Of a DNA stretch of 52,091 bases, positions 1 to 36,322 are shown in pieces (the stretch's first letter is position 1; the number at the start of each line of letters is the position of its first letter). The position numbers were made by a program, and so were the translations under genes. The notes under the pieces are model-generated. The model saw nothing but the letters and a program-made list of their open reading frames with translations. It was not told where the DNA came from and ran no database searches. Source of the DNA: Candidatus Bathyarchaeia archaeon (lineage in GTDB: Archaea; Thermoproteota; Bathyarchaeia; TCS64); assembly GCA_050014495.1 (NCBI GenBank), contig JBEKDF010000019.1, positions 1-52,091 of the forward strand, in the 5' to 3' direction.

Positions 1-211
1 AACCATTAGCAGAAGTGTGGTAATGAAAGTTGAGATTCCTTTTCTCTTTTTAGTCACGACCATTTTCAAGACCTAATCTAAAGAAAGTTTCAATGTATTT
101 AATTCTTCGGTAACTTATGACCTTACCATTAGTTAGAACTATTTTTCCAATATTCTTAAATGATTTCCGATTTTTTACTATATAGAGAATTTGCTGACAG
201 GTGTAGGATGT

Positions 212-3200
212 ATGTTTAAGAATAATTCTATGTCAAAACATAGGGGTATATCGACTTACATCGCGGTACTCATATTAATAATAATAGCTATCATCGCCGG
301 CCTCTTGATCTACGCGTATACGATGGGTTACATCGGTGGTTTCAATGTCGGTGCTGGCGGAAATGAGCTTCAGATTGAGAGCACATCTCAAACTAATGGC
401 CAACTCTTACTATATGTAAAGAATATTGGTCAAAACTCTCTGAAACTTAACCCCGCAACCCCCTCGAATGCGAGGGTCTATGTTGACGATGTTTCGGTGC
501 TTTATCAAATAAAGGAGCTAGAGTATGCCAATTTACTTCCATCGGGAAGTACTTGCACTATTGGTATTCTCGTTTCACAGACTTGGGTTGGGAACACAGT
601 GCAAGTTAAAGTGGTTGCCGATGATGGAACCTTCGTTGTAACCACTGTTAAAATCAATGTCCCCGATGGGATCAGCCACACTATAACGGCTTCCGCGGGT
701 CCTAATGGTCAGATCAGTCCTTCGGGAACTGTATTTGTCGCAGACGGTGCAAGCGTTACCTTCACCATTACTCCTAATACCCAAGACTTTTACATTTCAA
801 TGGTAACGGTGGATACCCAATCAGTGGGCGCTGTAACCTCCTACACATTCAACTCGGTTACAGGCGACCACTCCATATCTGCTACTTTCGCAGGTGGTCC
901 CTCATTCATTATAACTTCTTCAGTTAGCTCAGGCGGAACAATAAGCCCGCTGGGACAAGTTATGGTCCCATATGGTGGTAGTCAAACATTCACAATTCAG
1001 GCTAATCCTGGATGGTATCTATCTGATGTGCTGATTAATGGCACGGTACACGTAGGCGCTATCGGATCCTATACCTTCACTGGTGTCGAAGCGAATGGTA
1101 TCACCATCGCAGCCACCTTTATCCAAGGAGTCGCACACACAATCACATCCTCGGCAAACACCGGTGGAAGCATTACCCCCCTGGGAACTGTTACGGTACC
1201 AGATGGCGGTAGTCAGGCTTTCACGATCACAGCTGATTCTAGCCATTATATAGCCAATGTAATGGTAGATGGCGTATCCGTTGGTGCAATCGGATCCTAT
1301 ACATTCACAAATGTGATCACTGATCACATCATCGTTGTTACATTCGCAACTGGATCTGCGTACCTGATAACGTCATCAGCTGGAGCGGGCGGGTCGATTT
1401 CTCCACTTGGCTCAGTTTATGTCGTGGCAGGTGGTAGCATATCCTTCACAATTGCGCCAAACACGGGCTACCACATCGTTGACGTGGTTGTCGATACCTA
1501 CTCATATGGCGCAATAAACTCCTATACATTCAGTAATATCAATGGGATTCACACGATAGCAGCCTCCTTTGCACTCAATACATACACCATCACCGTCACA
1601 GCAGGATTACATGGTGCTATAACTCCGGGGACGAGCCAGGTCTCATATGGAAGTAGTAAAGTTTTCACGATAACTGCGGACTCAGGCTATTATGTCGCGG
1701 ATGTCAAGGTGGACGGTGTCTCGATCGGAGCCGTCATGTCCTACACATTCACGAACATAGTAAGCGACCACACACTATCAGCAACATTTGCTTTTGGCCA
1801 CGCCTACACAATCACATCCACGGCTGGAGCCGGTGGTAGCATCAGCCCGTTGGGACCGGTCGCAGTCCCCGATGGCAGCAGCGTGACATTCACAATCAAA
1901 CCTAATTCGGGTTACCACATCGCTGACGTGAAGGTCGACACTGTGTCGGTAGGACTAGTCAATGTTTACACATTCACAAATGTTGCGGCGGATCACACTA
2001 TTGATGCATCCTTCACAGGAACAACGATAACCCACACGATAACATCCTCAGTCGACGCTAACGGTGGAGGCACCATTAATCCATTAGGCAAGGTCACAAT
2101 CCCAGATGGCGGTAGCCAGAGTTATGTGATACAGGCCTCAGGTGGGTATCACGTCAGTGATGTCAAGGTCGATGGCGTCTCCGTCGGAGCCGTAATGACC
2201 TACACATTCAGCAACGTAATCTCAGACCATGTGATAGTCGCTTCGTTTGCCGTAGGGATAGCTCACACTATCACATCATCAGCCGGCGTGGGTGGAACTA
2301 TAGCTCCGCTTGGGCCAGTTGCAGTAGTTGATGGTGGAAGCCAGACCTTTACGATGACCGCAAACTCGGGATACCACATAGTAGACGTCCTGGTTGATGG
2401 GGTCTCGGTTGGGGCGGTTGGAACTTATGGATTCACAGGGGTTACGAAGGATCACACAATATCTGTTGTGTTTTCAACTTTCACTTTCACCATCTCGGCG
2501 TCGGTAGGATCCGGAAGGGGAAGTATTAGCCCGAGTGGAGATGTAGATGTTGCGTATGGCGGAACTCAGACGTTTACAATCACTCCAAGCACGTCTGGTG
2601 GAGGCAATCATGTTAGTGATGTCTTAGTCGATGGTGTATCGGTTGGACCGGTATTATCATATACTTTCACAAATGTACAAGCTGACCACACGATAGTAGC
2701 CTCCTTCTCATCAGGTGCTTCACACACCATCACCTCATCAGCTGGCCCGGGAGGCATAATCTTCCCAGCTGGGTCAATCTCTGTGGGTAACCTTCAGAGT
2801 CAGACATTCACAATAACACCAAATACCGGCTACAGCATCGCCGCAGTCATGGTCGATGGCGTTTCGAAGGGGACAGTAAATACATACACTTTCAGTAGCG
2901 TGACCTCGGATCACACAATATCTGTAACATTCATGCTCAACACAGTGACTATCACTGCTTCAGCTGGTTTGAATGGTGCAATAAGCCCATCGGGCTCAGT
3001 TATTGTACCTTATGGTAGCAGTCAAACATTCACGATCACGGCTAGCACGGGATACCATGTGCAGGATGTATTAGTCGATGGACAAACAGTTGGACCAGTA
3101 ATGTCCTATACATTTTACAACATCATTATCCCGCACACTATCGCAGCATCTTTCGCGTCAGGTACGGCCCACACAATCACATCCTCGGCGGGTCCGGGTG

Positions 3201-15918: not shown

Positions 15919-16138
15919 ACTTCTTACCTCGGTACACTCTCAATACCCTACTTCGTATTACTAATTACCACTATTTGATTCAAATAATGAGTAATTATTT
16001 AAAAAGGTTTGAGGAACGCTGATACATATTCCAAGTATAATATATTCTCAGAATCTGAATCTTCAATTAAATAATAGGAATCCATAATCTCTTTAACAAT
16101 TAAACTGTTAACATAAATCACTAATATAGTGACCACTA

Positions 16139-16312
16139 ATGGCGTCGATGATTATACCCCTAATTGTGTCGATGATATTAGGTGGGGGTCTATATTTTTT
16201 CATCGGTGGTCTACCTCTCGACACTCCTGTTAAGATGATAATAGTGCTAGTTGTCATATTAGCATCCTACACCATCCTCGCAGAGGTATTCCATACTAAA
16301 TATACGTATTAG
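16139..16312 (+). CDS. Small two-TM protein (57 aa), absent from the ORF track
   Basis: MASMIIPLIVSMILGGGLYFFIGGLPLDTPVKMIIVLVVILASYTILAEVFHTKYTY, translated by hand. Confidence 0.6.
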   Translation: MASMIIPLIVSMILGGGLYFFIGGLPLDTPVKMIIVLVVILASYTILAEVFHTKYTY

Positions 16313-16352
16313 TGCTCCTGAGACCTTTAAAACAAGATAATTAGATTTTGTC

Positions 16353-20882: not shown

Positions 20883-21731
20883 TTGAAAAATGTAATTAAG
20901 GAGCGTAGGGGTGATTCGACAATTGTAGCTACCGTATTATTGATGGCAATAACCCTCTTCTGTATAAGTCTGACGTTAAACTTCGTTCAAACGAGTCTAG
21001 CCAGACACGATGGAGAGAACGACTTCACGCTCTCACAGACCTTCATGAAGAATATTGGACTAAGTGTGGACGATGTCGCTTGGCACCCCGGACAGAGCAA
21101 CACTATCCAATACAGCTCAGAATCAGCTGAGATAAACCTACGGCCGAGTCTCATTCACTACAAAATCGAGGTCTGGAAGGTAGGAGATCACAGCTATTCA
21201 ACGCTAAAAGAATATGACACGGCGGTTCTCTTCTACGATCTCCCGCTAACAAAATATTATCTAGATAACACCTATTTTGATAATATTCTTCCAAGTAATA
21301 TGACTCAGCTCATCCAAAACTCGACAGAGGCCCCAATAACCAGAGTATTTTCTGTGCAGAGGGCTCCAATAGTGGGCGAGAACGCTTACATTAAGACCTG
21401 TGTAGCCTCATTATTCAGAAGCGTTCAGTTTAATATCAATGCTAATGGGGCGAGCACCAGCTATCTAAAGCTGTATTTAGCAAATATGACCTTAGGCCCA
21501 TTAACGACTGCGAACCCCCGCTACATTACTCTGACTGGTAAAAATGTAGGTGCCTCGGTAATTAACAATGTTTTACATTTACGAGTTTCAGTATCGTTCC
21601 CGAGCTCGGTAAGTGGGTACAATTCAACCTTCTTCAACTTCCCAGTTACCAGTCAGACAATAGACTTTCCCATAACTGGGTCGGAAGTCGAGTTATACGT
21701 AGGCACAGTTCAGGTGGGATTCCTAGAGTAG
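20883..21731 (+). CDS. Minor pilin-like protein with class III signal peptide
   Basis: ERRG|DSTIVATVLLMAITL; first gene of a tightly packed operon. Confidence 0.8.
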   Translation: MKNVIKERRGDSTIVATVLLMAITLFCISLTLNFVQTSLARHDGENDFTLSQTFMKNIGLSVDDVAWHPGQSNTIQYSSESAEINLRPSLIHYKIEVWKVGDHSYSTLKEYDTAVLFYDLPLTKYYLDNTYFDNILPSNMTQLIQNSTEAPITRVFSVQRAPIVGENAYIKTCVASLFRSVQFNINANGASTSYLKLYLANMTLGPLTTANPRYITLTGKNVGASVINNVLHLRVSVSFPSSVSGYNSTFFNFPVTSQTIDFPITGSEVELYVGTVQVGFLE

Positions 21732-21742
21732 GTGAAAAGTGA

Positions 21743-22198
21743 TTGGCAAGCGTTGTTACTGAAAATATCATAATCATGATCCCGGTTTTTATCGCGATGA
21801 TGATCTTCGCTCTGGTCGCTAACGCCGTGGCTTCCAACTACTCGATGCAGCAGAGAACACTCATCATTAACAGCGCCGAGAATCAGCTTGCCACAACAAT
21901 ATCCCAGCTTTATTACACCATAAGTCAACAGGATATGCTCCCTTGTAACATCACAAAGTCGACTCCTCTACCTGATCAAATAGATGGGCAAAACTATTCT
22001 GTTAATGGAACGTTAAATGGAAACGTCCTAGCTCTAACATTCAATTTCCCCGGATTAACTGTCTCTGACACCACTCACGTTAACCTAGGCCCGGGTGTGC
22101 ACTGGGACTCCTCCTCAGTGTTTGTCAGCACCAACCGTCAATCGGTTATAGCGATCCAAAAGAAATCATCAGGAGAATTATGGATTAGTTTCAGGTGA
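21743..22198 (+). CDS. Minor pilin-like protein
   Basis: N-terminal VVTENIII plus hydrophobic helix; LPDQIDGQNYSV; AGGTGA SD upstream. Confidence 0.7.
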   Translation: MASVVTENIIIMIPVFIAMMIFALVANAVASNYSMQQRTLIINSAENQLATTISQLYYTISQQDMLPCNITKSTPLPDQIDGQNYSVNGTLNGNVLALTFNFPGLTVSDTTHVNLGPGVHWDSSSVFVSTNRQSVIAIQKKSSGELWISFR

Positions 22199-22203
22199 AA
22201 TAG

Positions 22204-25200
22204 ATGGGTGCCAACATAATAGACTACATCGCTAGCTTCGTCATACTCCTCGGTCTATTGACAATCACAGTGACCGTGACTACGCAGACCCTCGACAACA
22301 TCTATAATTATCACAGCAGCCAGCAGATGAACACAAGAGCAACGAATCTGCTGAACGATCTCACAGAGAGCACTGGTATTCCTGAAGATTGGGCTCAGGG
22401 TTCAACAGCACCCACCAGCATAGGATTTCGCTGGGCGGTGGGTGAAGGCTCCTACATCAATCCCTTCGCACCGATGAGGTTGATGAACTCGAGCGTAACC
22501 CATTCTCTGGGTCCGTATAACTATAATGACTTATCCAGCGCCACACTAAGCCCATGGCCAAACGCTAACATCAATTTCAAGGTTGGCGACGCAGTAAGCT
22601 ATGAGGAAGCTTCTCAGCTGCTCGACACAAGTGGCAGCTACGGCTGGAGGGTGACATACAATCCCCTACTAAACATAACCCTGGCACCCACAATTGTATC
22701 CACCATTCCATGGTATCAAGGATGGGGCTACAGACAAGCCATAACGATTGACCACACACAGGTACCGGAACTTCTCACAAACTATCCCTTTCTCATCAGC
22801 TTAACCCAGCAAAACATCGCGCAAAATGCACTTGGTGACGGCGGAGACATACTCTTCACAACCTCAGATAGGGTAACAAAAATCCCTCATGAGATCGACT
22901 CATATGATAGCTCGACTGGACATCTATTAGCTTGGGTGAAGATACCACAGCTATCAAACACTGTGGATACCGTCATTTACATTTATTATGGTAATCCATC
23001 AGCTCTCAACCAGGAATCACCCAGCCAAGTTTGGTCAGGGTATCGTCTAGTCTCTCACATGAGTGACAACCCTGACTCATCTCATATCTCCGACAGCTCT
23101 CCGGATGGGCTAACTGGAACTAAAAAGGGGGACTCGGAACCTGCGCAGACAAATGGCGTAATCTCCTTCGCACAAAACTTCGATGGCTCAAATGATTACG
23201 TTACACTAAATCAGGGCACATTAACAGGCGGTTTAGTAGTATACGAGATGTGGCTGAAGAGTGTTCAATCAACCAGTCCCCAGACTATACTAACGAGTGG
23301 ATTCAAAAACAACACCCTAGGGTTCATCGATATCAGCAGGCCTTCCTCTAGTGATGATCTCTCCTTTGATTACGCAGCGAGTTCTAACTGGGTCAGTAAA
23401 ACTAATGGACTCAGTGACGGAGTCAAGATTAACTGCGTCACCTCCTACAACGGGAAAGTCTATGGGGGGGTCTCGGATGGCTCTCTAGTAGAATGGGATG
23501 GTGCCAGTAAAATATGGGTTCTAAGAGCCGCCCAACTCAATTCGCAAACCAGCATCAACTGCTTGGCAGTCTTTAATGGGAAGCTCTACGGCGGTACAAG
23601 CCCGGGGGGTCGTTTATTTGAGTGGACAACCGGAGCCACAGTCTGGACACAGAGAGCCCCTCAACTCGGGGCCGAGACTGACATAAAGTCTCTCGCAGTC
23701 TACGATCCAGGCACAGGTAGCAAACTATACGGCGGAACAAGCCCCGGAGGAAAATTGTACCAGTGGGACTCCACAAATTATGTTTGGATTCAAGTGGCGC
23801 CCAAGCTCAAGATACTGAGCCTCGCTCTATTCAACAACAAAATATACGGAGGAACTGATGACGGCCGTCTACTCGAATGGGACTCAACTAACCTTGTATG
23901 GGTTCAGGCAGCTGCACAACTAGGATCCGAGACATCCGTCAACTGTTTAACCGTCTATAATCCCGGGTCGGGAAGCAACCTCTACGCCGGGACCTCACCT
24001 GATGGGATGCTCTACCAATGGGACTCCGTGGGTCGTGCATGGATTCAGAAAGCAACTAAAGGGGCACTCTCAATCACCGACATCACATCACTGAATGTTT
24101 TCAACGGGAAAATATACGCTGGGACAAACCCTAATGCATATCTCTGTTCATGGGTATCCTCCCAGACATCCTGGAACCAGGAGCAAACAGCAGCCGGCGA
24201 ATCAATGATCAACTCTCTGGCCACTGCTGGTTCAACATCGGCTAACAGCTACGGCTTCGGTACTAACTCCGGCAACTGGAACAATCCCACACAGGCAGCA
24301 ACATCAGACAATCTATACGCTACCCCCAATACTGTTTTGACGAGGTCTCCAATCTCGAATAACGGAGCTTGGTCAAACCCAACGAATGCTTACTCCTCAG
24401 GAGGTGGAGTAGCTAGTACAACGACGTCAAGTGCTCAGCATATCTATTTTGGCTATGGTTTCTCCGTAGGTGCTAGCTCTTCAGTTGATATGGTTAGAGT
24501 AAGATTAGATGCATATTGTTCAGCCATTACCCAACAGATTAAACTTGAGATCTCTACTGATGGAGGTTCCACGTGGCGCCCAACGTCGACCACCATTAAC
24601 GTAGCATCAACAACTCTAACAACCTACTGGGTTGATGTCACATCCTGGGACACTTGGACACCAACTAAAGTTAACAATATTAGAACTAGAGTGACCTTTA
24701 TTAAATCTGGAAGTGGAACTAAAACAATAGATTTGGATTGGATCCCTGTTGAAGTTACATATTCAACTCAACCCATGACTCACACATTTTCACAGTGGAA
24801 TATCAGTCCACCCTACACAACAATCTCAAAAGTTGAGGTCGGAATAGAAGGATACACAGCTGGAACTGGCCAGCTCTCAGTAACAGTTTCCTGGGATGGT
24901 GGCACAACATGGGCCACCGCACAGACCATTAATTTACCAACGACAGACCCAAACTCCTCCACCTACCTAGACTTCACTTCAGCCACCAGCTGGACCACTA
25001 CAAAGCTCAGTAACACGAATTTCCAGGTAAAAGCTACCTATGTATATAATGGTGCAGCGAGTGCTGGATACCTAGACTACATATCCACAAGGATAACGTC
25101 ATCAGCAACACTACTCTACGCATCAACATCACCTCACACATATCTCTATTCTCTAACCACTGTAGGATCTTGGACGAAGAAAATAACTACACAGTACGGC

Positions 25201-28020
25201 ACGGACACGATAGTCCTCTCCCTAGTTAACAACGCAAATTATATCTATGGATGTGCTTCCCCTAGCGGAAAACTTCTCAGATGGGACACAACTGTAGGAG
25301 GCTCTACGTGGACTCTGGCTACCAATCCACCTACTTCTCAGATCCCGATTTCACTATTCTCAAACGGCGCAACCCTCTACTGTGGAACAACGCCAAACGG
25401 GTACCTATACACATTCAACGGGGCATCATGGACCTCCGTAGTAACGACACAGTATGGTGTTGAAACTTCAATCCTATCAATGGCGTTAGACTCGGGTGGG
25501 AACCTCAGAGTTGGCACCGACATCAACGGTCTACTACTAGGCGTGAGCGGGAGCAGCTATACGAAGAGTGCAGATATTGTGATCACGGGAGAATCCGGAA
25601 TACTATCCCTAACCGTCTTCAATCCCGGCACCGGCAACCAACTATACGGTGGGACTACCCCCAATGGTAGACTATTCGCCTGGAGTGGATCAGGCACATG
25701 GGTCCCAAAAACCACGACACTAAACAGTCAAACTGACATAACATCACTAACAGTGTTCAACCCCGGTTCGGGAAACAAGATTTACGGTGGTACAAGCCCC
25801 GGGGGTCACCTATTCGAGTGGAGCTCCGGAGCATCATCATGGACGGAGAGGGCGCCTCAGCTGGGTTCCGAGACGAAGATAAACTCGCTAGCTGTGTACA
25901 ACCCCGGTTCAGGGAGTAAGATTTATGGTAGCACAAGCCCCGATGGTTGCCTATTCGAGTGGGGGTCCGGAGCATCCGCTTGGACGCAAAGGGCTACGGA
26001 GTTTAACTCGGAAACAGATGTTACATCCTTAGTCACCTTCGACCCAGGGTCAGGAACTAAACTTTATGGCTCAACTGGTCCAAGCGGGTCGCTGCTTGTG
26101 TGGGATAATAACAGTCAATGGAGTCAGGTCGTAACGTACTCGATAATACAGTCTATGACAGCATTCAATGGTAACATCTACTGTGGGACGTCAACTGGTA
26201 GACTGTATGTATGGAACTCTGTAGCATCCCGATGGGATATGAAGGCGAGCACTCTTGGGGCAACATCCGCCGTGGACTCCCTCATCATATTCAATAATCT
26301 GCTCTATGGAGGGACGGCAGATGGTCGTCTACTGCAGTGGGATGGAACAAGTACATGGATACTGAAGGCATCACAGCTCAGCAGTCAGGCCATCAATAGT
26401 CTCGCAGTGTATAATTCGAAGATCTATGGTGGGACTAGTCCAAGCGGATGCCTATTCGAGTGGAATGGAGTCGGTGCATGGACGCAAAAAGCAGCGCAGC
26501 TAAATTCACAAACCTCCATAAATACTATTACTACTTTTAATGGCAATTTATACGGCGGCACAAGCCCCGGTGGATGTCTATTTGTATGGATGACCGGTGC
26601 TGCTCAATGGACTCAGGTTGCACCTCAGTTAGGCTCAGAGACCTCGATAAACTCCCTCGTGGTCTTTAACAATAAAATATATGCAAGCACTTCGCCGGGT
26701 GGGCGCCTCTTCCAATGGGATGGAGCTGGTACATGGATAGGCAAAACCTACATTCTAGGCTCAGAAACCAATATCCTCAGTCTTGCGATATGTAATGATA
26801 AACTGTATGGCAGCACATCACCAGATGGATTACTATACGAGTGGGATGGGGCGACAAAATGGGTGCAGATTTGCAATACCCTCAACACCCAAAGCTCCGT
26901 CACGATCATCACATTAAATGGGAATTTATATGGGGCTTCTCAGCCAACTGGTTACCTCTTCCAACTGAGTGACAGTGGCACAAGAATCATCCCGAACTTC
27001 TTCACAGGCTATAGTAACAGCTGGTTACAACTAGTAATAGTAGCAAATTATGCGGCTGGCCGAGTGGATATATACAGAAATGGATTGCTGCAAGGATCCT
27101 TGACCTCAACAACTTCAATGATTGCCCCAACTTCAGGACCCAGGTATATGGGTGCATATGTAGTCGCGGGTGTCGCCAATAACCCCTATTTTGGGGGAAT
27201 AGACGAGCTGAGGATCTCCCAAACAAATCAGGATGCGAATTGGATAAAACTGAGTTACAATAACGAAGCGAATCCAGGCAGCTTCATCACAGTAAACACA
27301 AGCGAGTCTATCTACTTCAGAGTTAGTGCACTCGTCACAGCTAAAAATGGACCAGTTAGCAACGCAACTTTGACTGGGACACTTATCTACTGCATCCCCG
27401 GTGCAACAACGCCAAGCTACTCGCAATTGACATCTCAACCCGTAACAACCAGCTCGAACGGCGCTGCAACTTTGAGTTTCAGCGGCTACACATCAACAAT
27501 CGGCGTCTATTTCCTAGCTGTGAGGGCTAATCACGCTGGAGTACAAGATATCGGCTACTACGTTAGTTCACAAACTCCAAAACCTGATCCCTTGGGAGTA
27601 TTTGTTACTAATTATGGAAATGGCACACTGACCCTAGTCCATAGAAAGGACATGGATATACATTATCCCTCATCCACAGATGTGGCTTATAACACGACTT
27701 TTGCGATGCCCATCGGACCTTCTTCCTATCGATCGGTCTCATTAAACTCTGCAGGTGTGCTTAGTGTGGGTACTCAAAAAATTGTCCAATTAGGAGCAGC
27801 TGTGGATAACCCTGGAGTACTAATCACATTTTTGAAAACCGGAGCCAACACCTATGGATTGACTTACACACCTTGGGGTGTCAGCTCTCTCAACCTAAGA
27901 GCCACCTTTGGGGCACCCATAATGGATGCCACGAATGTCATCACTAAGACGAGGATAGTCAACATCGAATCTTACACATACGAGGTCCAGGTCCAGATGT
28001 GGAAAATAGGAGGCGACTGA
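22204..28020 (+). CDS. Giant minor pilin/adhesin with inserted DUF2341, LamG, 21 beta-propeller blades and two jelly-roll-like domains
   Basis: N-terminal IIDYIASFVILL helix; GIPEDW; DUF2341 (WGYRQAITID...IYIYYGNP); LamG (FDGSNDYV...GGIDELRIS); repeats INSLAVFNGKLYGGTSPGGRLFEW. Confidence 0.8.
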   Translation: MGANIIDYIASFVILLGLLTITVTVTTQTLDNIYNYHSSQQMNTRATNLLNDLTESTGIPEDWAQGSTAPTSIGFRWAVGEGSYINPFAPMRLMNSSVTHSLGPYNYNDLSSATLSPWPNANINFKVGDAVSYEEASQLLDTSGSYGWRVTYNPLLNITLAPTIVSTIPWYQGWGYRQAITIDHTQVPELLTNYPFLISLTQQNIAQNALGDGGDILFTTSDRVTKIPHEIDSYDSSTGHLLAWVKIPQLSNTVDTVIYIYYGNPSALNQESPSQVWSGYRLVSHMSDNPDSSHISDSSPDGLTGTKKGDSEPAQTNGVISFAQNFDGSNDYVTLNQGTLTGGLVVYEMWLKSVQSTSPQTILTSGFKNNTLGFIDISRPSSSDDLSFDYAASSNWVSKTNGLSDGVKINCVTSYNGKVYGGVSDGSLVEWDGASKIWVLRAAQLNSQTSINCLAVFNGKLYGGTSPGGRLFEWTTGATVWTQRAPQLGAETDIKSLAVYDPGTGSKLYGGTSPGGKLYQWDSTNYVWIQVAPKLKILSLALFNNKIYGGTDDGRLLEWDSTNLVWVQAAAQLGSETSVNCLTVYNPGSGSNLYAGTSPDGMLYQWDSVGRAWIQKATKGALSITDITSLNVFNGKIYAGTNPNAYLCSWVSSQTSWNQEQTAAGESMINSLATAGSTSANSYGFGTNSGNWNNPTQAATSDNLYATPNTVLTRSPISNNGAWSNPTNAYSSGGGVASTTTSSAQHIYFGYGFSVGASSSVDMVRVRLDAYCSAITQQIKLEISTDGGSTWRPTSTTINVASTTLTTYWVDVTSWDTWTPTKVNNIRTRVTFIKSGSGTKTIDLDWIPVEVTYSTQPMTHTFSQWNISPPYTTISKVEVGIEGYTAGTGQLSVTVSWDGGTTWATAQTINLPTTDPNSSTYLDFTSATSWTTTKLSNTNFQVKATYVYNGAASAGYLDYISTRITSSATLLYASTSPHTYLYSLTTVGSWTKKITTQYGTDTIVLSLVNNANYIYGCASPSGKLLRWDTTVGGSTWTLATNPPTSQIPISLFSNGATLYCGTTPNGYLYTFNGASWTSVVTTQYGVETSILSMALDSGGNLRVGTDINGLLLGVSGSSYTKSADIVITGESGILSLTVFNPGTGNQLYGGTTPNGRLFAWSGSGTWVPKTTTLNSQTDITSLTVFNPGSGNKIYGGTSPGGHLFEWSSGASSWTERAPQLGSETKINSLAVYNPGSGSKIYGSTSPDGCLFEWGSGASAWTQRATEFNSETDVTSLVTFDPGSGTKLYGSTGPSGSLLVWDNNSQWSQVVTYSIIQSMTAFNGNIYCGTSTGRLYVWNSVASRWDMKASTLGATSAVDSLIIFNNLLYGGTADGRLLQWDGTSTWILKASQLSSQAINSLAVYNSKIYGGTSPSGCLFEWNGVGAWTQKAAQLNSQTSINTITTFNGNLYGGTSPGGCLFVWMTGAAQWTQVAPQLGSETSINSLVVFNNKIYASTSPGGRLFQWDGAGTWIGKTYILGSETNILSLAICNDKLYGSTSPDGLLYEWDGATKWVQICNTLNTQSSVTIITLNGNLYGASQPTGYLFQLSDSGTRIIPNFFTGYSNSWLQLVIVANYAAGRVDIYRNGLLQGSLTSTTSMIAPTSGPRYMGAYVVAGVANNPYFGGIDELRISQTNQDANWIKLSYNNEANPGSFITVNTSESIYFRVSALVTAKNGPVSNATLTGTLIYCIPGATTPSYSQLTSQPVTTSSNGAATLSFSGYTSTIGVYFLAVRANHAGVQDIGYYVSSQTPKPDPLGVFVTNYGNGTLTLVHRKDMDIHYPSSTDVAYNTTFAMPIGPSSYRSVSLNSAGVLSVGTQKIVQLGAAVDNPGVLITFLKTGANTYGLTYTPWGVSSLNLRATFGAPIMDATNVITKTRIVNIESYTYEVQVQMWKIGGD

Positions 28021-28023
28021 TCG

Positions 28024-29370
28024 ATGCTTAAAACAGTTGAAGCGTTATTTGTTGTAGTATTGGTTTTTACTACGCTTGTCGCGATGGAGAGCTATATTCA
28101 GCTTCCTTCTCCCAGACTCGCATCAAGTATCGGTCAACAGGAATTAGCGACAACCACACTAAAGAGTCTAGATAACGATGGGACCCTAACGCAAGCGGTT
28201 TTTAGCAGTGATCAGCGTCAATGGGCGGAGCTTCTAAAATCAATTGACAACAATCTCCCATCTAACACGATCTATAAACTAACCTCCTACCAAATTATAA
28301 TCAACCAAACAACCGGCATCCTCGATTATGTTCAAGACAAGACGGGTGGAAACTTTAACGGTGTGTTTCCTTCCGGTTCAATAACCTCAGAGTATACTGT
28401 GACCTCCCCAAATGTTACTGTAACCCAGATTCCGGAAAAGATCAGAACGAAGAATGGACCCGTAACTCTTTACATACTAAATTGCAATGATGCTAATGGA
28501 TGGTGGATAACGGGGTACACAGGTTATACTTTAGCCAAGAGTGTCTATCAGACTATGTCCCCATACTTCACAACCACAATATTAGTGAACTCCACGTCTC
28601 AGCTTGGTTCATTACTTTCTGGAACCAAGCTCACCACTAACCCTAATGAGCGGATCCAGGACGCAGTTGTGGTTAATACGTTTGGTGAGTCCGTTCCCAT
28701 CCCTCAAAATTTGACCGCTAATTATCAACAATATCCCTATACCATAGGTAAAAGAGTCACTGCCTCAAATTGGACGTGGGTAAGCATCGTCGGATATCCT
28801 TTTTACTACGATTCGAATAAAGTCACATTTTCCTCATACGATAATTCTTGGGGCATACACGGTATGCGAATGATCGCTGCACAAGGTCTAAACTATTTCC
28901 TCCAAGGAATTGACTCCTCCTATCATTCTTCACCTGTGGAGAATGATACCTGGATTACTGACTCGATCGGAGTTGTCTCCTATACCGAACAGATTCGTGC
29001 GGCCATGGATTATTACGGAATATACCCTGGATTAACGCAGACTTCAACACGTGCCGTACCGTTTACTGACATCAGTCGATATCATATGGTTTTACCTATC
29101 GACTCTCAAGGTAATGCATACTCAAATATTTTCAACCCCATCACATCGGGTGGCAAGCAGTACTATGCTGGAGCAATCTGGGCTCATAGGATTGGCGGAG
29201 TAACCAATGGAGCGTTTATGGCTATGGGATTGGATAGAACTCCTGACATCAGGGTCACATTGATCGGCCTCCTCAATTACTATAAACCCACTCTACTGAG
29301 GTCACAGTTCGACGTCGTTGGGACGACTAGAATGATTGAGCTGCAGATAGGTCAATTAGGAGCAAGCTAA
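28024..29370 (+). CDS. Minor pilin-like protein
   Basis: MLKTVEALFVVVLV N-terminal helix with Glu; coupled to neighbours with 1-3 nt gaps. Confidence 0.7.
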   Translation: MLKTVEALFVVVLVFTTLVAMESYIQLPSPRLASSIGQQELATTTLKSLDNDGTLTQAVFSSDQRQWAELLKSIDNNLPSNTIYKLTSYQIIINQTTGILDYVQDKTGGNFNGVFPSGSITSEYTVTSPNVTVTQIPEKIRTKNGPVTLYILNCNDANGWWITGYTGYTLAKSVYQTMSPYFTTTILVNSTSQLGSLLSGTKLTTNPNERIQDAVVVNTFGESVPIPQNLTANYQQYPYTIGKRVTASNWTWVSIVGYPFYYDSNKVTFSSYDNSWGIHGMRMIAAQGLNYFLQGIDSSYHSSPVENDTWITDSIGVVSYTEQIRAAMDYYGIYPGLTQTSTRAVPFTDISRYHMVLPIDSQGNAYSNIFNPITSGGKQYYAGAIWAHRIGGVTNGAFMAMGLDRTPDIRVTLIGLLNYYKPTLLRSQFDVVGTTRMIELQIGQLGAS

Positions 29371-29371
29371 T

Positions 29372-31330
29372 ATGAAGATCAGAGCTCGCCGCGGGCAATT
29401 CCAAATTATGGCCGCTTTTCTAGTCCTCGTGATAATGGTAAGTGCAATAATTGCCGCGTTCAATAGAATTCAGGACAATCCATTTAAGACCCCTGTCACA
29501 TTGGCTGATTCAATTAAAACTGTAGATAATTCACTTCACGAACTACTAGGTTTCTCTGTTGGTTACTATGGATCAATAATTAAACTCACGGGCAATGTCA
29601 CCTACGCCAAAGAGAAAACGACATCTTATTTCCAAAGCGGACTTGAGACTGTAGCACATCAAGACATTAACAGCGGAGTGTCTCTCTCGCTTCAACAAAT
29701 CTCCGTCTCCACAAACTGGTTTGAGAAGCAGGGATATACAAAGGGAAGTCTAATCGTTAATTACTCTATTCCAACTCTAGGACTTTACGGGATCAAGTAC
29801 AGCGGATCAGCGTCTCTAACTGTGAGTATTCTACAAACAACAGGTACCACCTGTAATGTACAAGTTCTAGGAGATAATAACGAACCAAACTTATCCCTAA
29901 CAAAAGATGATTTTCAATTCTTCAAATACGACAGCTCTCAGAATGCTTGGATCTACATCAACCCCACTTATGATCCAATAATCTCAAACTTTGGAATATA
30001 CTCAATCACGTTGCCCTCTGGGATAAATCAGGACGCCTATTATCTACAGGTCACTGACCAGAGGGGTATCGTTGCTTCAAGTGGTTACGTCAGGGGTATT
30101 GGTGGAAACAACAAGGATCTGACCTCATATACCTATAATTTCACTTGGAATCCCGCACTGTACAATTCCCTCAATGAACCGAAGATGGAGATAGAGCTAC
30201 TTCAGAATGGTACGATGCGTTGGCTGGGGCAAAGCCTTCCCTTCAGTGGTACTCCGAGGCCTATAGCACCTATACCCGTGAAGGGTATTCACCTCAACCA
30301 GACTATTGACGGCGTCAACCAGGAGGTGCCCTTCCAGATCGAGAACTGGGGTTCAAACTATAGAGTTCCATATGGAATGACAAGTAATTCGACTATATTC
30401 GATGATAACTGTATGATCGTGTTCCTAGTCAACCATCACGTGTCGAAGGTGACTCTTTGGTGGGATGGATCGGACACAGCTGTCCAGACAAAAAATGCAT
30501 ACAAAGATACAGCTTTCCTTAACGACAACACTGGGAACAACGTCCTTGACAACGGAGTCATAACCCTAGATCTTTCTAACTTTGCTAATGGTGTTAAATC
30601 GACTACGAAATCTAACCCATTATTAAGTTCATGGATTAACTTTGCGAGGGTAAATAGCGTGGTGCCGACGTATGGTTCGGCTGTTTCATATACACTAATA
30701 CATGGGGTTGTAAGAGACGTCGTAATACAGGAACCTGAGTGGAGCGGAGGTGTTCCAAACTCCCCAGATCTTTATGGCCACATCGTTATCACACTTCCCG
30801 CTGGAACAGATTATTACACCTACAGGGTGAGAAATATCTTCGTTTCAACCTCTCTGACCAGAAGCATAAGCGACTTGAGCGTTATTCAGTTGAAGGCACC
30901 GACTGGAAGCTATAGTCAACTGACTGAGGACGGTCAGAATAGCGGTTCACCCATAAAGAGTTCAAGTGCTCTCTTCGCTAACGGACTGACAGCCTACCAA
31001 CATCAATGGAGTGAGTACATAGACTCGTCTAATAGAGGAGTAGGACTATTCATGCGTTCCAATTTCAACGATCTTATTTATGCATTTGATAATGTTATTG
31101 GGCAGCACACAGGCTCGATTTCCCTAAATCCTTCACAAATGAATATAGAAATTGACCCCATCAAGCGCTTCGCTGTGACTGGATTTTCACAAAGCCTTGA
31201 TGTAACATGGGTGGGTGGAGTAGTCAACTTTAATTCAGGCAGCCCAGCTGACTCAATTTACCCAAACTCCAGTGGAACCCTGGGTCTTTGGGTACTTGTT
31301 GAATCTCCACCAACTGTCACTCCGAATTAG
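29372..31330 (+). CDS. Minor pilin-like protein with class III signal peptide
   Basis: RARRG|QFQIMAAFLVLVIM. Confidence 0.78.
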   Translation: MKIRARRGQFQIMAAFLVLVIMVSAIIAAFNRIQDNPFKTPVTLADSIKTVDNSLHELLGFSVGYYGSIIKLTGNVTYAKEKTTSYFQSGLETVAHQDINSGVSLSLQQISVSTNWFEKQGYTKGSLIVNYSIPTLGLYGIKYSGSASLTVSILQTTGTTCNVQVLGDNNEPNLSLTKDDFQFFKYDSSQNAWIYINPTYDPIISNFGIYSITLPSGINQDAYYLQVTDQRGIVASSGYVRGIGGNNKDLTSYTYNFTWNPALYNSLNEPKMEIELLQNGTMRWLGQSLPFSGTPRPIAPIPVKGIHLNQTIDGVNQEVPFQIENWGSNYRVPYGMTSNSTIFDDNCMIVFLVNHHVSKVTLWWDGSDTAVQTKNAYKDTAFLNDNTGNNVLDNGVITLDLSNFANGVKSTTKSNPLLSSWINFARVNSVVPTYGSAVSYTLIHGVVRDVVIQEPEWSGGVPNSPDLYGHIVITLPAGTDYYTYRVRNIFVSTSLTRSISDLSVIQLKAPTGSYSQLTEDGQNSGSPIKSSSALFANGLTAYQHQWSEYIDSSNRGVGLFMRSNFNDLIYAFDNVIGQHTGSISLNPSQMNIEIDPIKRFAVTGFSQSLDVTWVGGVVNFNSGSPADSIYPNSSGTLGLWVLVESPPTVTPN

Positions 31331-31535
31331 TAAAATACAATTCGCAAACTAAAGCGGCGCGTGTGCATTACCCTGCAACTTAGTAAATATCCAAACAATG
31401 TCCAACTAATAATTTTTCGAGTCTAAATAATAGCCAATACAGTATTTTTTAATTTCGAATACTTACGATCCTTAACCATATTAATTTCATCAAACAAGAA
31501 AAAACAGATTTTTAAAAAAAATCTTTACGTGTAAA

Positions 31536-32180
31536 CTAAGCTGGGTTGAAAATATAATAGCTGATGTTAAAAACTATATGAAAAATTGAAGGTATGGAGA
31601 TATTCTTTTGAATAATGTAGATACCTCCCACGGCCCAACCGAATATCATTCTAATTAGAATTAACGCTAAAAGCATAAAACCGATGTTTCCGCTAATAAT
31701 AAGTGAAATTGTGTCGGAATGAACTAGAGCAAAAGCGAGAGAGGTCAAGAGGAGTGGTTGAGTAGCCCTTATTACAAAAGATCGTCTATCCTCCCTCGGT
31801 ATTGAGTAAAATTTTGGCCAGTCATTTATCATAGATCCGAGGAGGTAGCATCGGAAAAAAAGTTCCTCAATTATTGGGAGCAAAATTGAACCTCCGAATA
31901 GTATTGTAGCTGTTCCGAAATTATTCTTAAAGTATAAAAACACAATTGAAAATACTAAAGCGTATATTAAAAATTGAAAGTTTTTTAAATGTAGATCAAG
32001 TCTATCGCGTAAAGACCTCTTTTCCGCCCATTTTATCCATATAATTGAGGTCGCTGTCATGTAAGTTGATAGTATGCCTACTTTGAATAACGTATCCTGA
32101 TTATAGATGCTGAAAAAAACTTGAATACTAAACAAACCAACCCAGGAGAATAATTTTAATATAGTTTTATTTGATTTCAT
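31536..32180 (-). CDS. CPBP (CAAX protease/Abi-like) intramembrane protease
   Basis: PIIEELFFR, FALVH and HIVFN motifs; multiple TMs. Confidence 0.88.
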   Translation of the reverse strand: MKSNKTILKLFSWVGLFSIQVFFSIYNQDTLFKVGILSTYMTATSIIWIKWAEKRSLRDRLDLHLKNFQFLIYALVFSIVFLYFKNNFGTATILFGGSILLPIIEELFFRCYLLGSMINDWPKFYSIPREDRRSFVIRATQPLLLTSLAFALVHSDTISLIISGNIGFMLLALILIRMIFGWAVGGIYIIQKNISIPSIFHIVFNISYYIFNPA

Positions 32181-32389
32181 TTATTAACATCCTTTAACAA
32201 CAATAATATATGGGAGGTTTCATCTTCATTCTTTGTATGAATGGCAATTATGGGATTTCATATGTTAGAACCTTTTTAAGGTAATGTAGAATAAATATGG
32301 ATTACTAATACTATATTAGTGATATTGATGGATAATCTAAAAACTATATATGCATAATGACGTGAACATGTAGTTCGGAGAAAAATAAA

Positions 32390-32836
32390 ATGCAACTCCT
32401 TAAGATAGAAAAGAGGAAAGGAATCAGCCCACTAATCGCCACCCTGTTGCTAATAGCGATCGCAGTCGCTGCATCTGTACTAACCTACTCATGGGTCATG
32501 TCCATGATCACTAGCCAGTCCGCACAGGCACAGACCCAAGTACGCATAGATTCAGTTACATGGGCCAGTGGTTCTCAATTTTCACTCGATGTTAGGAACA
32601 CCGGAAGCGTTGATGCCACAATTGAATCAGTGTCGATCAGGACCAATTCCGCTGGCAGTACAGCAACTGTTGACAGCACAAGTGCAGGTGTTAAATTAAT
32701 AAGTATTGGACAAGGAACACACCTACCTATTGGGCCAGTCAGTTACACTTATGGTAAAAGCCAGTCTTACGTCATAAGAGTGACCACTAACACCGGATTC
32801 TACTACGAAGCAGTCTTCACGTCCCCTGCATCTTAA
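32390..32836 (+). CDS. Major archaeal type IV pilin
   Basis: KRKG|ISPLIATLLLIAIAVAASVLTYSW; VRNTGS; 148 aa. Confidence 0.92.
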   Translation: MQLLKIEKRKGISPLIATLLLIAIAVAASVLTYSWVMSMITSQSAQAQTQVRIDSVTWASGSQFSLDVRNTGSVDATIESVSIRTNSAGSTATVDSTSAGVKLISIGQGTHLPIGPVSYTYGKSQSYVIRVTTNTGFYYEAVFTSPAS

Positions 32837-32837
32837 A

Positions 32838-32873
32838 CACCCTTTTTCCTGGTGAAATATTCCCCCTTTTTTT
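32838..32873 (+). terminator. Oligo-T tracts between pilin and ATPase
   Basis: CACCCTTTTT (32838-32847) and T7 (32867-32873). Confidence 0.5.
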
Positions 32874-32932
32874 AAGGTAATCGCAGAGTCTAGTGAGAAT
32901 GTCCTGACAAAAAATAGAGATGAAGTGAATCA

Positions 32933-34600
32933 ATGAGAGACACACAACTTCTTATTAACAAAGAAAAAGAACATCAGAAGGATATGCCCGCAAAAGAGGT
33001 TAAAGAAGTGCAGAAGGCCTTCGAGGAGGATCTTCAGAAACTCCTAAAGGAGGAAGCTGCGAAATCCCCCAGCAACGCGATGGGGTTCACCCCTGTTCGT
33101 GCATTCATTCCCGATCGTACTCCTCTGAAGAATATCTATCCCATAATAGATGGGAAAGCGTATGCGGTCATATCAACAAATCATACAACAAGACAGACAA
33201 AATACGAAGCAGTTGAACCCACACTAAATGATGAAGATAAGAAGGCTCTAAAACTCGTCAGAGATCACTTCACGGCAACCATCGACACAACCCTAACGGA
33301 GGTGGGTGGCTTGGACGCTGCCTTAGGCTCTTTGAAGAAAGGGCTCGATGAAGCCGTCTCACTACATAAACTGAATCTTGAAGAGTTCAGGAAAGAGAAG
33401 CTGATGTACTACCTCGCCAGAGACTACCTAGACTATGATAAGATCGACATCATGATGAAGGATCCCTACATAGAGGACATCAGCTGCAACGGGCCCAATG
33501 TGCCCCTGTACATTTGGCACAGGGTCTATGAGTCAATCCCCACAAACATCGTATTTGATAACGATAGTGAGCTTGACTCCTACATAATCAGGCTCGCATA
33601 CAAATCAAAGAGGATGATCAGTGTAGCTAATCCCATTCTAGACGCTGCGCTACCTGATGGCAGCAGAGCCCAAATGACTTACAGTAAATACGCCACCAAG
33701 CAGGGCAGCACCTTCACGATCAGAAAGTTCAAAGCCGATCCACTGACTATAATTGACCTGATCAAGAACCACACAATCTCGGCGAAGATGGCCGGATTAT
33801 TCTGGTACCTCGTTGAGAACAAGATCAGCATATTCTGTTGTGGCGGCGTTGCATCTGGTAAAACAACGATGCTGAATGGCTTATCCACCTTCATCGCTCC
33901 TGATGCGAAGATTATCACAATCGAGGACACTCCTGAGGTTCAACTCTACCACGAAAACTGGATTAGGGCAGTAACTAGACCAAGCACGGGCTCATCCGTC
34001 GGTATCACACTATTTGACCTACTCAAGGCGGCTATGCGTCAGCGCCCCGACTACATCCTAGTGGGTGAGATCCGTGGAGAAGAAGCATACACACTATTCC
34101 AGGCAATGTCCACTGGCCACTTGGGTCTAGCCACTCTTCACGCTGAATCGACTCAATCAGCCCTCAGGAGGCTTGAGACCGAGCCAATGAACATCCCACG
34201 CATGATGATCGCTGGGTTAAACATGGTAGTCATCATGGCGAGACGTGATGTTAATGGAAGACCCGGACGACGCATCCTCACCGCTGCTGAGGTCCAAGGA
34301 CTCAGCGATGATAACGAGATCATAGTGAAGGACATCTTCGACTGGGACCCCAAGACCGACACATGGAATATGCCTAACCAGAGCTTCTACCTCAAGAAAG
34401 CCGCAATTATGAAGGGAATCACATTGGAACAGGCCCAGTCTGACATCGATGCGAGGGCCGAGATGCTGACGTATCTAGTGAATCATAACAAGAGGGGCTT
34501 CAAAGAGGTTACCCAGGTTATCCGAGACTACATGAGTACCCCTGAGAGCGCAAGAGAGGCCCTGATGAAGGAGGATGAGGCAGAAGTTGAAGCCAATTAA
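32933..34600 (+). CDS. Type IV pilus assembly ATPase (ArlI/TadA/VirB11-like)
   Basis: DPYIEDISC, Walker A GGVASGKTT, TIEDTPE, RQRPDYILVGEIRG, TGH...TLHA. Confidence 0.95.
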   Translation: MRDTQLLINKEKEHQKDMPAKEVKEVQKAFEEDLQKLLKEEAAKSPSNAMGFTPVRAFIPDRTPLKNIYPIIDGKAYAVISTNHTTRQTKYEAVEPTLNDEDKKALKLVRDHFTATIDTTLTEVGGLDAALGSLKKGLDEAVSLHKLNLEEFRKEKLMYYLARDYLDYDKIDIMMKDPYIEDISCNGPNVPLYIWHRVYESIPTNIVFDNDSELDSYIIRLAYKSKRMISVANPILDAALPDGSRAQMTYSKYATKQGSTFTIRKFKADPLTIIDLIKNHTISAKMAGLFWYLVENKISIFCCGGVASGKTTMLNGLSTFIAPDAKIITIEDTPEVQLYHENWIRAVTRPSTGSSVGITLFDLLKAAMRQRPDYILVGEIRGEEAYTLFQAMSTGHLGLATLHAESTQSALRRLETEPMNIPRMMIAGLNMVVIMARRDVNGRPGRRILTAAEVQGLSDDNEIIVKDIFDWDPKTDTWNMPNQSFYLKKAAIMKGITLEQAQSDIDARAEMLTYLVNHNKRGFKEVTQVIRDYMSTPESAREALMKEDEAEVEAN

Positions 34601-35474
34601 CTTCCATAGCATAGGTTACAGGTTCCTCGGGGATGCTCCTTCTAGACTCCCGCTGAGTGACTTTATTAAAACTAACCTAGATCGGGCAAGCATCAGGATG
34701 AGCTACGTCGTCTACATGAGCAGTATGGCTTTCTGGATGATAGTCAGTGCTGCTTTAACTGGCCTCATAGCCATTCCAATTGTTTACTTCCTCGGGCCAA
34801 TGCTGAAACTTCCTACATACTTCCTCTACGTGGCTCTAGCATCACCACTGATAGCTGCAGCGGTTGTTCTCATTTGCTTCATCTATTATCCATTCTCCGT
34901 GGCTGATGCAAAAAAGATGAAACTCGACAAGAACATGGTCTACATCATTAACTACATGAGTGTCTTGGCCGGCGCGGGGATCATGACGGAGGATGTATTC
35001 CAGTCCTTCGCGACTCTCAAAGACACCTATGGAATCAGAGACAGCGCCAGGTCGATAGTTCGAGACATCGGCTTACTGGGAAAAGACATCATCTCAGCTA
35101 TCGAAGCAGAGGCGAAGAGAACTCCCTCTAAGAAGTATTCAAAGCTGCTTAATGGTCTTCTCGGAATCACGAAGTCGGGAGGCGACTTCAAGAAGTACCT
35201 CGAGGAGACTGCGAAGCACGAGCAGGAGGTAAGACGTCGAGAATTGGTAGATATAGTGAATAAACTGAATATGTGCGCGGAGATCTACATCACACTTGGG
35301 ATTACATTTCCAATCATCCTCATCGTCCTGCTATCTCTCATGGGTATCTTCGGAGGAAGCATAGGCGGAGGATTTAGCCCTGTTCAACTCATGGAACTAA
35401 TGACTTACGCGATCTTTCCGGTAGCCGCGATCGGAATTATATTGTTAATAGACGGGATGACCCAGAATTGGTGA
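34575..35474 (+). CDS. T2SS-F/TadC-like membrane platform protein
   Basis: TM helices, LGKDIISAI, RTPS, SGGD; overlaps the ATPase gene. Confidence 0.88.
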   Translation: MRQKLKPINFHSIGYRFLGDAPSRLPLSDFIKTNLDRASIRMSYVVYMSSMAFWMIVSAALTGLIAIPIVYFLGPMLKLPTYFLYVALASPLIAAAVVLICFIYYPFSVADAKKMKLDKNMVYIINYMSVLAGAGIMTEDVFQSFATLKDTYGIRDSARSIVRDIGLLGKDIISAIEAEAKRTPSKKYSKLLNGLLGITKSGGDFKKYLEETAKHEQEVRRRELVDIVNKLNMCAEIYITLGITFPIILIVLLSLMGIFGGSIGGGFSPVQLMELMTYAIFPVAAIGIILLIDGMTQNW

Positions 35475-36322
35475 GCATACCACTTAATAGCGAAATCATA
35501 TTCAACAAGAAGTTGAAATACGCACTAATGGGCGCTTCAGTAGTAGCTGCAATAGGCGTAGTATTATTCGGCTACAGTCTCTATCTAGCCAACACAATCA
35601 GTCTATACGATGCCCACATCTTCGTGGCAGCTGGGGTAATCGTTGGAATGATTGCACCGGCTTTCATTATGATTCTTCAGGATATTAGAAGGAATGAGAT
35701 TGATAAGGCGTTACCTCGAGTCCTCGAGGAGATATCTGAAGGTCTAATGTCCGGCATGACACTAATAGAGGCCATTGAGGAGGCTTCCAGACGGGATTAT
35801 GGATGGATCAGCAGAGAGCTTAAGATCCTCACTAGCCAGATGAGCTGGGGCGTTCCAATCGAGAAAGCATTCGACAACTTCGCGACTAGAATAGGCACAG
35901 ATATGGCTCAGAAGACGACGTCTCTTCTACTCTCGTCAATCGAACTCGGAGGAGACCTCAGAACAACCTTCCTATCCACAGCCGATTTCCTGAGGCAGAT
36001 GTTGGAGGCAAGAGATGACAGGAACGAGGAGATGCGGCCATATCTAACCATCATCTATGTGACCCTGATCGTCTTCCTGGCCATGATGATTATGCTTTAT
36101 GGTAGCCTAAATCAGCTCCTCAGCATCCAGAGTCCAATCGTCAAAGTCCAGATGACGAAGGAGCAGCTGAAGATCTTACTATACGACTTAGCCATAATGG
36201 AAGCCGCATTCGGTGGACTCATCGCTGCAAAGCTTAGCTCTGGGAGTATCTGGCCTGGGCTTAAGCACAGCATCATCATGTTAGCGATGAACACCATTAT
36301 ATTCCTACTATTCATCTCGTAG
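35468..36322 (+). CDS. Second T2SS-F/TadB/C-like membrane platform protein
   Basis: IDKALPRVL...SGMTL...WGVP...GGDL...GLKH. Confidence 0.88.
   Translation: MVSIPLNSEIIFNKKLKYALMGASVVAAIGVVLFGYSLYLANTISLYDAHIFVAAGVIVGMIAPAFIMILQDIRRNEIDKALPRVLEEISEGLMSGMTLIEAIEEASRRDYGWISRELKILTSQMSWGVPIEKAFDNFATRIGTDMAQKTTSLLLSSIELGGDLRTTFLSTADFLRQMLEARDDRNEEMRPYLTIIYVTLIVFLAMMIMLYGSLNQLLSIQSPIVKVQMTKEQLKILLYDLAIMEAAFGGLIAAKLSSGSIWPGLKHSIIMLAMNTIIFLLFIS

Follow-up and report, generated by a model that had tools for sequence, protein, structure and literature searches.

A pilin-like scaffold in an archaeal type IV pilus locus whose single loop is predicted to carry domains nested six deep

Introduction

How can a single hairpin of a pilin-like protein take up ~1,530 amino acids (aa), and in what order are the inserted domains nested? 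The question is raised by a gene at positions 22204-28020 of the forward strand, on which all of its parts described below also lie, in contig JBEKDF010000019.1 of a Candidatus Bathyarchaeia archaeon; the whole analysed stretch of 52,091 nucleotides is referred to as the window. The open reading frame (ORF) encodes 1938 aa and is free of internal stops. The original prediction, made from the letters alone, described the product as a minor pilin with at least five levels of domain insertion, and all 17 of the motifs searched for were located at or near the positions given there.

The models and comparisons presented here predict six levels, in the order scaffold immunoglobulin (Ig)-like domain, DUF2341, LamG, propeller A, propeller B, jelly-roll and homologous jelly-roll, each inserted in the one before. 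The nesting as such was upheld, and the count was raised to six by the predicted insertions of LamG in DUF2341 and of propeller B in propeller A. The empty scaffold, the insertion site, the order of the split halves and the variation of shell number and tip among relatives were established directly; each split domain is predicted by modelling to fold whole. It is fairly probable that the product is a pilin-like scaffold protein from a type IV pilus operon of an archaeon, and that one of its hairpin loops carries domains predicted to be nested six deep and serves as a loop-anchored adhesive arm, holding a pair of probable sugar-binding jelly-rolls off the pilus.

The scaffold and its insertion site

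Both ends of the protein belong to a family in which the insert is missing. Eighty regions were fetched around those stronger matches of a marker gene, the next gene downstream, that had upstream sequence. In 75 of them the positional orthologue is a single empty ORF, 385-458 aa long with a median of 409, that matches the window protein at both ends; in the other five it is either fragmented by frameshifts or decay (L045, L049, L109, L111) or matches the C part only (one locus). A long insert in the orthologous scaffold gene was found in none of the 80 loci. A hidden Markov model (HMM) of the 75 empty orthologues matches aa 2-162 of the window protein at its positions 2-160 (independent E-value, iE, 6e-27) and aa 1695-1937 at positions 156-401 (iE 1.7e-39), in agreement with the proposal that a pilin-like scaffold is split by DUF2341 and LamG. 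The N part of the scaffold (aa 1-162, 22204..22689) comprises a long N-terminal helix, an alpha/beta part and the first strand of Ig domain 1, and the C part (27304..28020) the remainder of Ig 1, a second beta domain and a C-terminal hairpin.

AlphaFold2 modelled P0024, a closer empty orthologue, from 86 sequences with a predicted local distance difference test (pLDDT) value of 94.5 and a predicted template modelling score (pTM) of 0.88. The model contains a 54-residue N-terminal helix (residues 2-55), the first half of which is hydrophobic by sequence. An Ig-like domain has its first two strands at 150-156 and 164-173, and the insertion site falls between them; residues 147-250 resemble invasin/intimin-type Ig domains in structural alignment (Z 8-10).

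As a single query, the scaffold C part matched nothing in 78 further genomes of the order or in the first contig scan; the neighbouring gene led to the orthologues instead. For DUF7287, the organism's own genome had no match and five of the 75 orthologues a weak one (best E 0.015). For a seventh level, in which a pilin head would wrap both Ig-like domains, no short contiguous homologue came up with a profile of the head alone, and covariation on 86 sequences amounted to noise. In a distant paralogue (L144; hhalign 93.7%) DUF2341 and LamG stand uninterrupted, later in the scaffold.

DUF2341 and LamG

The insert begins with the N part of DUF2341 (aa ~163-277, 22690..23034), recognised by PF10102 (E 2.6e-10) and, from aa 170, by a homologue HMM. 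It is followed by the N half of LamG (aa 278-396, 23035..23391), with FDGSNDYV at 23179 and EMW at 23245. The C half of LamG (aa 1597-1675, 26992..27228), with WLQLVIV at 27022, IYRNG at 27070 and GGIDELRIS at 27193, leads into a return segment (aa ~1676-1700, 27229..27303) that is predicted to complete DUF2341. By our own count, the halves of DUF2341 and LamG stand together in one module of ~330 aa in 21 of the 29 loci having a relative, and a profile built without the window protein matches its aa 170-~393 and ~1597-1700 on consecutive positions. PF13385 matches the C half of LamG only (its positions 76-143), below the whole-protein cut-off; the N half, which corresponds to the N part of the contiguous module, matches homologues with full PF13385 hits. 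A sequence search of the PDB with the C half gave nothing better than E>0.6.

When aa 166-397 were modelled in complex with aa 1597-1702, the score was 0.80 (best control 0.18), which may arise from likeness to solved LamG folds; the mark applied was reached by 116 of 157 solved complexes and by 2 of 215 mismatched pairs. Contacts agreed to 97% between runs, with partner pLDDT of at least 82. Strands of LamG are predicted to pair across the gap (aa ~346-351 with ~1608-1614), which, together with the contiguous homologues, supports the view that LamG was split by the propeller blades. Within DUF2341, contacts are predicted between aa ~180-181 and ~1695-1697 and between aa ~197 and ~1687-1688 (expected error 0.7-0.8 Å). 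Since its first strands pair in this way with aa ~1687-1697, LamG is predicted to be inserted within DUF2341. The locus L150, in which DUF2341 surrounds a different, non-LamG stretch, is in line with such an insertion.

A different kind of insert was seen in a secreted protein of locus L130 (1384-3360, forward strand), where a GATase_4 domain (E 2e-18; class II glutamine amidotransferase-like) lies between DUF2341 and most of LamG; L133 reads alike.

The propellers

Between the halves of LamG, 21 propeller blades were counted, as had been claimed. AlphaFold2 modelled aa 397-1596 (21 sequences) with pLDDT 81.1 and pTM 0.46. Single solved 7-bladed propellers align over model residues 1..909 with ~281 residues (7kqq with Z 28.8 and a root-mean-square deviation, rmsd, of 2.9 Å; 2z2n with Z 30.7 and rmsd 2.3 Å), so that this range represents one 7-bladed propeller spanning aa 397-1305. 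Other single-propeller alignments cover model residues 916..1195 (rmsd ~2.6 Å), and propellers A and C reach Z 26-31 to solved 7-bladed propellers. As only ~281 residues are aligned over 1..909, the alignments make ring A discontinuous and ring C contiguous; propeller B was assigned the seven remaining blades, 4-10, the structural comparison giving no separate entry for it. The suggestions that 21 blades make three 7-bladed propellers and that blades 4-10 are nested thus fit the model, and the irregular linkers that had hinted at the nesting are present (spacing of at most 39 after blades 3 and 14; blade 10 is followed by an irregular linker). Pairwise blade similarity gave no partition of the blades into propellers.

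Propeller A consists of a closing strand with blades 1-3 (23392..23784) and of blades 11-14 (25558..26118; the aligned model range ends at 905-915). The N-terminal strand of the model has pLDDT <50, and its assignment to ring A is tentative. Propeller B consists of blades 4-6 with strand a of blade 7 (23785..24231) and of the remainder of blade 7 with blades 8-10 (25111..25557); it is kept as a 7-blade block in P0007, P0027 and P0034, where the flanking blades are different. Propeller C (blades 15-21, 26119..26991) is placed in tandem after A.

In full-length relatives the blade totals are 14, 19, 21 or 34, mostly pairing concentrically into sevens. The successive segments are 2, 7 and 5 in P0034 (1639 aa, 14 blades, two of them read by eye), 3, 7, 4 and 7 in the window protein (1938 aa, 21 blades), and 4,3,5 then 7 then 2,3,3 then 7 in P0027 (2446 aa, 34 blades, the last read by eye); in the N-truncated P0007 the C side reads 2,4,3 then 7. 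The N segments 4,3,5 of P0027 and the C segments 2,4,3 of P0007 give 7,7,7 in mirror order only, one of six pairings. Judged from its sequence, P0027 would have eight insertion levels.

The jelly-roll pair

Blade 7 is interrupted at its turn, between strand a (INSLATAG, 24208-24231) and strand b (LLYASTSP, 25111), by ~294 aa, as had been read from the letters. Here a complete inner jelly-roll of 143 aa (aa 713-855, 24340..24768; WSNPTNAY at 24370, STDGGSTW at 24553, LDWI at 24733), the tip, sits between an outer N piece (aa 677-712, 24232..24339; WNNPTQAATSDNLYAT at 24277) and an outer C part (aa 856-969, 24769..25110; HTFSQW at 24781, SWDGGTTW at 24889, LDYI at 25072), which are jointly homologous to it. 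When the insert was cut out in silico, the joined outer halves showed 31% identity to the inner copy over 142 aa (blastp E 2.5e-18; shuffles 0 of 1000), which confirms that a jelly-roll is split by a full homologous copy. The C part shows 32% identity to the inner copy (E 3e-14), and the N piece alone is weaker (E 1.6e-5; shuffles 1 of 1000). In the model of aa 397-1596, which has an all-beta tip, strand a of blade 7 continues into the jelly-roll (strand 272-294) and the last jelly-roll strand continues into strand b (559-580).

The inner domain is contiguous in P0006 (three in a row), P0009, P0011 and P0012; P0007 carries two tandem copies, 99% identical, at the same site, and in the fragment P0030 the domain immediately precedes the scaffold C part. 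The G+C content at third codon positions of the inner jelly-roll is 0.33 versus 0.44-0.59 in the 13 other gene segments, which is suggestive of a later arrival. Pfam and NCBIfam contain no family above cut-off for the tip domain, and NCBIfam none for the whole protein. The Atlas clusters nearest to the jelly-roll consist of unnamed proteins from Chloroflexota and phages.

Variation among relatives

Three checks proposed with the original prediction gave a consistent picture: domains are discontinuous in the predicted structures, and blades 4-10 are nested there as guessed; the split halves of the scaffold, of DUF2341 with LamG and of the jelly-roll match contiguous natural homologues; and the inserts vary among orthologues. 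P0002 is 93, 91 and 88% identical to the window protein in scaffold N part, DUF2341 and LamG N half, yet it has a different propeller B, whose fourth blade bears a DUF2341-like cargo in another loop. With 37-46% identity in the scaffold N part yet 62-63% in propeller B, P0027 and P0034 share the tip of the window protein. Since a close relative has another tip and distant ones have the same, the tip is mosaic.

Halves of the jelly-roll kit occur in mirror-symmetric numbers in unrelated surface proteins (3+3 in P0010, 2+2 in P0016, 1+1 in P0013, P0014 and P0017). Likeness in P0010 is 94% between the outer two N halves and 85% between the outer two C halves, versus 72-77% otherwise, as expected if one event copies both halves of a shell.

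Related nests were noted in passing. P0010 and P0013-P0017 are secreted proteins in which the same jelly-roll is self-nested one to three times around different cores, and P0018, a pilin-like VWA protein, is another nest from the same domain kit. P0009 has a doubly nested second jelly-roll family around the tip domain, and in L146 (868-2847) DUF2341 and LamG lie within that second family.

The pilus locus

The gene is surrounded by conserved pilin-like genes on the same strand. Upstream are one of 282 aa with a class III-type leader (20883..21731) and a small one of 151 aa with weak DUF7266 (21743..22198); downstream are the locus marker of 448 aa (28024..29370) and a gene of 652 aa (29372..31330), whose orthologues have loop inserts or C-terminal additions. 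A probable major pilin (148 aa) with a secretion ATPase and two platform genes follows at 32390..36322 on the forward strand (Pilin_N, TIGR02537 above cut-off, T2SSE with E 3e-38, T2SSF twice).

The ATPase is found inside the fetched stretch of most orthologous loci; the ATPase and platform genes lie downstream in the window and upstream in most relatives. The 448-aa marker was matched in 95 of 401 genomes of the class and in 0 of 70 of the organism's own family, and two genomes of the same genus share a housekeeping gene of the contig at 89-91% identity. The contig therefore belongs to the lineage and the locus is patchy, and transfer or rearrangement of the locus 20883-36322 is likely.

Inserts were also observed in the other pilin-like genes of the operon. 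In L033 (4431-7295, forward strand) the orthologue of the 282-aa gene reaches 954 aa, with an apparent three-level insert of other beta domains and no Pfam match; the inserts of L033 and L037 in such genes appear nested by reading of the sequences. In L037, L043, L060, L081 and L082, ~120-190 aa are inserted near position 236-267 of the orthologue of the 652-aa gene, the extra part of which is C-terminal instead in L058, L067 and L079.

Elsewhere in the window, a protein of 2309 aa (191-7120, forward strand) has a class III-type pilin N terminus followed by long collinear Ig-like/Flg_new_2 repeats, a tandem alternative to nesting. The locus is flanked by DDE (IS5-like) transposases (7227-8126 and 10784-11590) and by an intact TnpB/IS605 OrfB of 396 aa (37201-38391). 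A receiver-domain protein and a TackOD1 zinc-ribbon protein upstream (15160-17396) are possible regulators.

Proposed function and alternative readings

If the split domains fold whole as predicted, the chain leads outward through the N halves and returns through the C halves. The scaffold would join the pilus through its N-terminal helix, and the insert would extend out and back from the single loop, with the shells setting reach and the innermost modules specificity. Because a loop insert must begin and end at one spot, nesting would be the way to lengthen such an arm. Its length could change by gain or loss of whole 7-bladed propeller shells, and its specificity by exchange of the inner propeller plus cargo; similar blades or half-domains would most likely recombine in the ordinary way, by gene conversion or a mis-registered double crossover, with no mobile element involved. 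Adhesion, pilus incorporation, extended shape and the manner of growth are proposals; adhesion is inferred from the locus context, the domain kit, the tip-adhesin proposal for DUF2341 and the split domains of RTX adhesins.

More tentatively, a family of archaeal pilus-associated adhesins might build telescopes of concentric propeller shells, in which one mis-registered recombination would copy both halves of a shell, reach would be adjusted by whole propellers (2, 3 or 5 were seen, with up to 8 putative levels), and the innermost propeller with its lectin-like cargo would be swapped as a cassette between distant alleles.

Several observations weigh against these proposals. A class III signal peptide has one or more basic residues and a Gly or Ala before the helix. 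No basic leader precedes the helix here, the ORF beginning at the first start codon past the upstream stop, and the orthologue consensus likewise lacks one; the scaffold is therefore regarded as pilin-like rather than as a canonical pilin, and may be a minor pilin. Leaderless pilin-like proteins are mentioned for archaeal filaments in the accessible text of a census (PMC13705601). The top fold matches contain no solved pilin or jelly-roll, their lists being filled by Ig domains and propellers, and this is not evidence of absence. The likeness of the tip to CBM35/galactose-binding-like jelly-rolls consists of the all-beta model and of a weak profile match over ~90 residues to 2w46 and 2w87 (E 0.019-0.035, below significance), entries which we take to be CBM35 and which the search output names "Esterase D"; model residues 302-310, in the outer jelly-roll N piece, have pLDDT <50. 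Loop insertion is not forced, as L119, P0038 and P0041 carry C-terminally appended repeats on the same scaffold. As to the shells, the sum 7,7,7 joins the N side of P0027 with the C side of P0007 and has one boundary set by eye, P0027 alone gives 7,6,7, shell A of P0002 has 3+2 = 5 blades and propeller C of P0004 has 6; these exceptions may be collapsed assemblies or real odd rings. At a pTM of 0.46 the domain-to-domain geometry is not fixed by the model, and an extended, telescoping shape remains a proposal.

An explanation of the nesting by blocked termini, through which insertion would be forced, was rejected on account of the same C-terminal additions.

The pTM of 0.46 would also suit a compact cluster of binding modules (LamG, three propellers, two jelly-rolls), in which the nesting is real and added shells provide sites or avidity rather than reach. 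Taken as a double propeller, A and C can be aligned to 2ymu and 7mq8 (rmsd 6-9 Å), and relatives conserve the divergent blades (7-10 and 19-21), as one would expect of binding faces. This reading is nevertheless unlikely: the added shells are made of generic, near-interchangeable blades, and each chain of insertions terminates in a single tip, either conserved or swapped.

The replacement of that tip in a ~90%-identical relative, the patchy distribution, with the marker not found in the 70 own-family genomes searched, and, as a weak lead, the phage proteins among the nearest jelly-roll clusters could be read as signs that the arm is mainly a shield or decoy, its tip and shells changing under pressure from viruses or predators that use the pilus as receptor. 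We consider this improbable, as adhesins under selection by their substrate would give the same pattern and no variants of length or tip were seen in four sequencing runs, the contigs of which drop rare variants.

It is highly improbable that selfish or self-splicing modules have simply accumulated in permissive loops, as tolerated passengers with no host function. The same small domain kit does occur inside many unrelated surface proteins, and insertion sequences lie nearby; yet family scans of the protein detected neither a Hint/intein nor a nuclease or transposase family, no repeat among the families listed flanks an insertion junction, and the architecture is intact in proteins merely 32-46% identical in the scaffold.

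An assembly artefact of repeated blades, to which the repetitive blades and possible collapses behind the blade counts of some relatives might point, is refuted for the window, where blade DNA is merely 60-87% alike, the gene is tiled without joints by other runs, and three independent full-length homologues (P0002, P0027, P0034) have the same architecture. Contigs from four other public peat or wetland runs cover the gene with 0 differing letters in the listed pieces and jointly bridge every domain junction, the whole stretch being spanned by no single contig; no joint at the gene was found in them. The gene sequence is thus real. At least half of its words are present in 10 of the 22 listed runs, 4 of these 10 being possible sources and runs with small shares of words being left out; among the listed runs there is no RNA run carrying the gene. 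Ten of 66 representative matches were examined in full. L113, 100% identical to the window, was left out as independent evidence, and L154, with a stop codon within the match, was left out of the alignments.

Relation to known systems

Triple propellers of the DDB1/CPSF160/SF3b130 type contain three 7-bladed propellers, one of them inserted in another, with the chain ends close together. In these and in double propellers (PDB 2ymu) the number is fixed, whereas the shells described here vary in number and the block is itself inserted in LamG.

The principle of recursive insertion is already known (PMC13114784, PMC12077191). According to the accessible text of a survey of 2.7 million domains, the complex case is a six-level nest in cyanobacterial RpoC2, and inserts are smaller than their hosts as a rule (PMC13114784). 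The recursive A1-B1-C-B2-A2 order of RpoC2 Si3 is of similar depth and likewise places a domain in its own kind; the window protein differs in being extracellular, in combining five folds in an unbranched chain of six insertions (eight inferred in P0027), in inserts far larger than their hosts and in a depth that varies among orthologues. Neither propellers nor archaea are mentioned in the main text of that survey.

In RTX adhesins split domains are described, in the text available, as projecting ligand-binding domains (PMC12077191). AhLap, an RTX adhesin of Aeromonas hydrophila, has an Ig-like domain split after its first strand, the same position as in the scaffold Ig; it shows one or two nested levels along a collinear type I-secreted fibre, whereas the arm of the window protein is wholly nested and stands on a pilin-like scaffold.

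Archaeal DUF2341 proteins (arCOG03508 and others) were proposed as type IV pilus-tip adhesins (PMC4858521), and the PilY-like arCOG03511 belongs to archaeal filament subsystem 4A/B, as given in the accessible text of the 2026 census of archaeal type IV filaments, where propellers are unmentioned (PMC13705601). The present locus resembles these systems in its large DUF2341 protein next to an ATPase, two platform proteins and several minor pilins (PMC4858521, PMC13705601); no insertion architecture is described for them in the accessible text of the proposal (PMC4858521). A description of this architecture was not found in the open-access literature searched. What is new is the nest of five folds on a pilin-like scaffold, the propeller-in-propeller shells of variable number and the exchange of tips.

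Conclusions

The depth of the nest equals the deepest case in the accessible text of the 2.7-million-domain survey while breaking its size rule (PMC13114784). Family scans miss such proteins, LamG lying below cut-off and the tip being unnamed. The insertions map tolerant loops in the Ig, DUF2341, LamG, propeller and jelly-roll folds, and six open domains must await their C halves during export. The natural series from an empty 400-aa scaffold to alleles of 14, 21 and 34 blades would allow direct tests of the origin and folding of deep nests and of a possible dependence of reach on depth. Should the telescope with its exchangeable cassette prove true, it would represent a general route of diversification for loop-anchored surface arms and be among the deepest heterotypic nests reported. 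For abundant uncultured archaea of peat, the protein is a candidate attachment organ.

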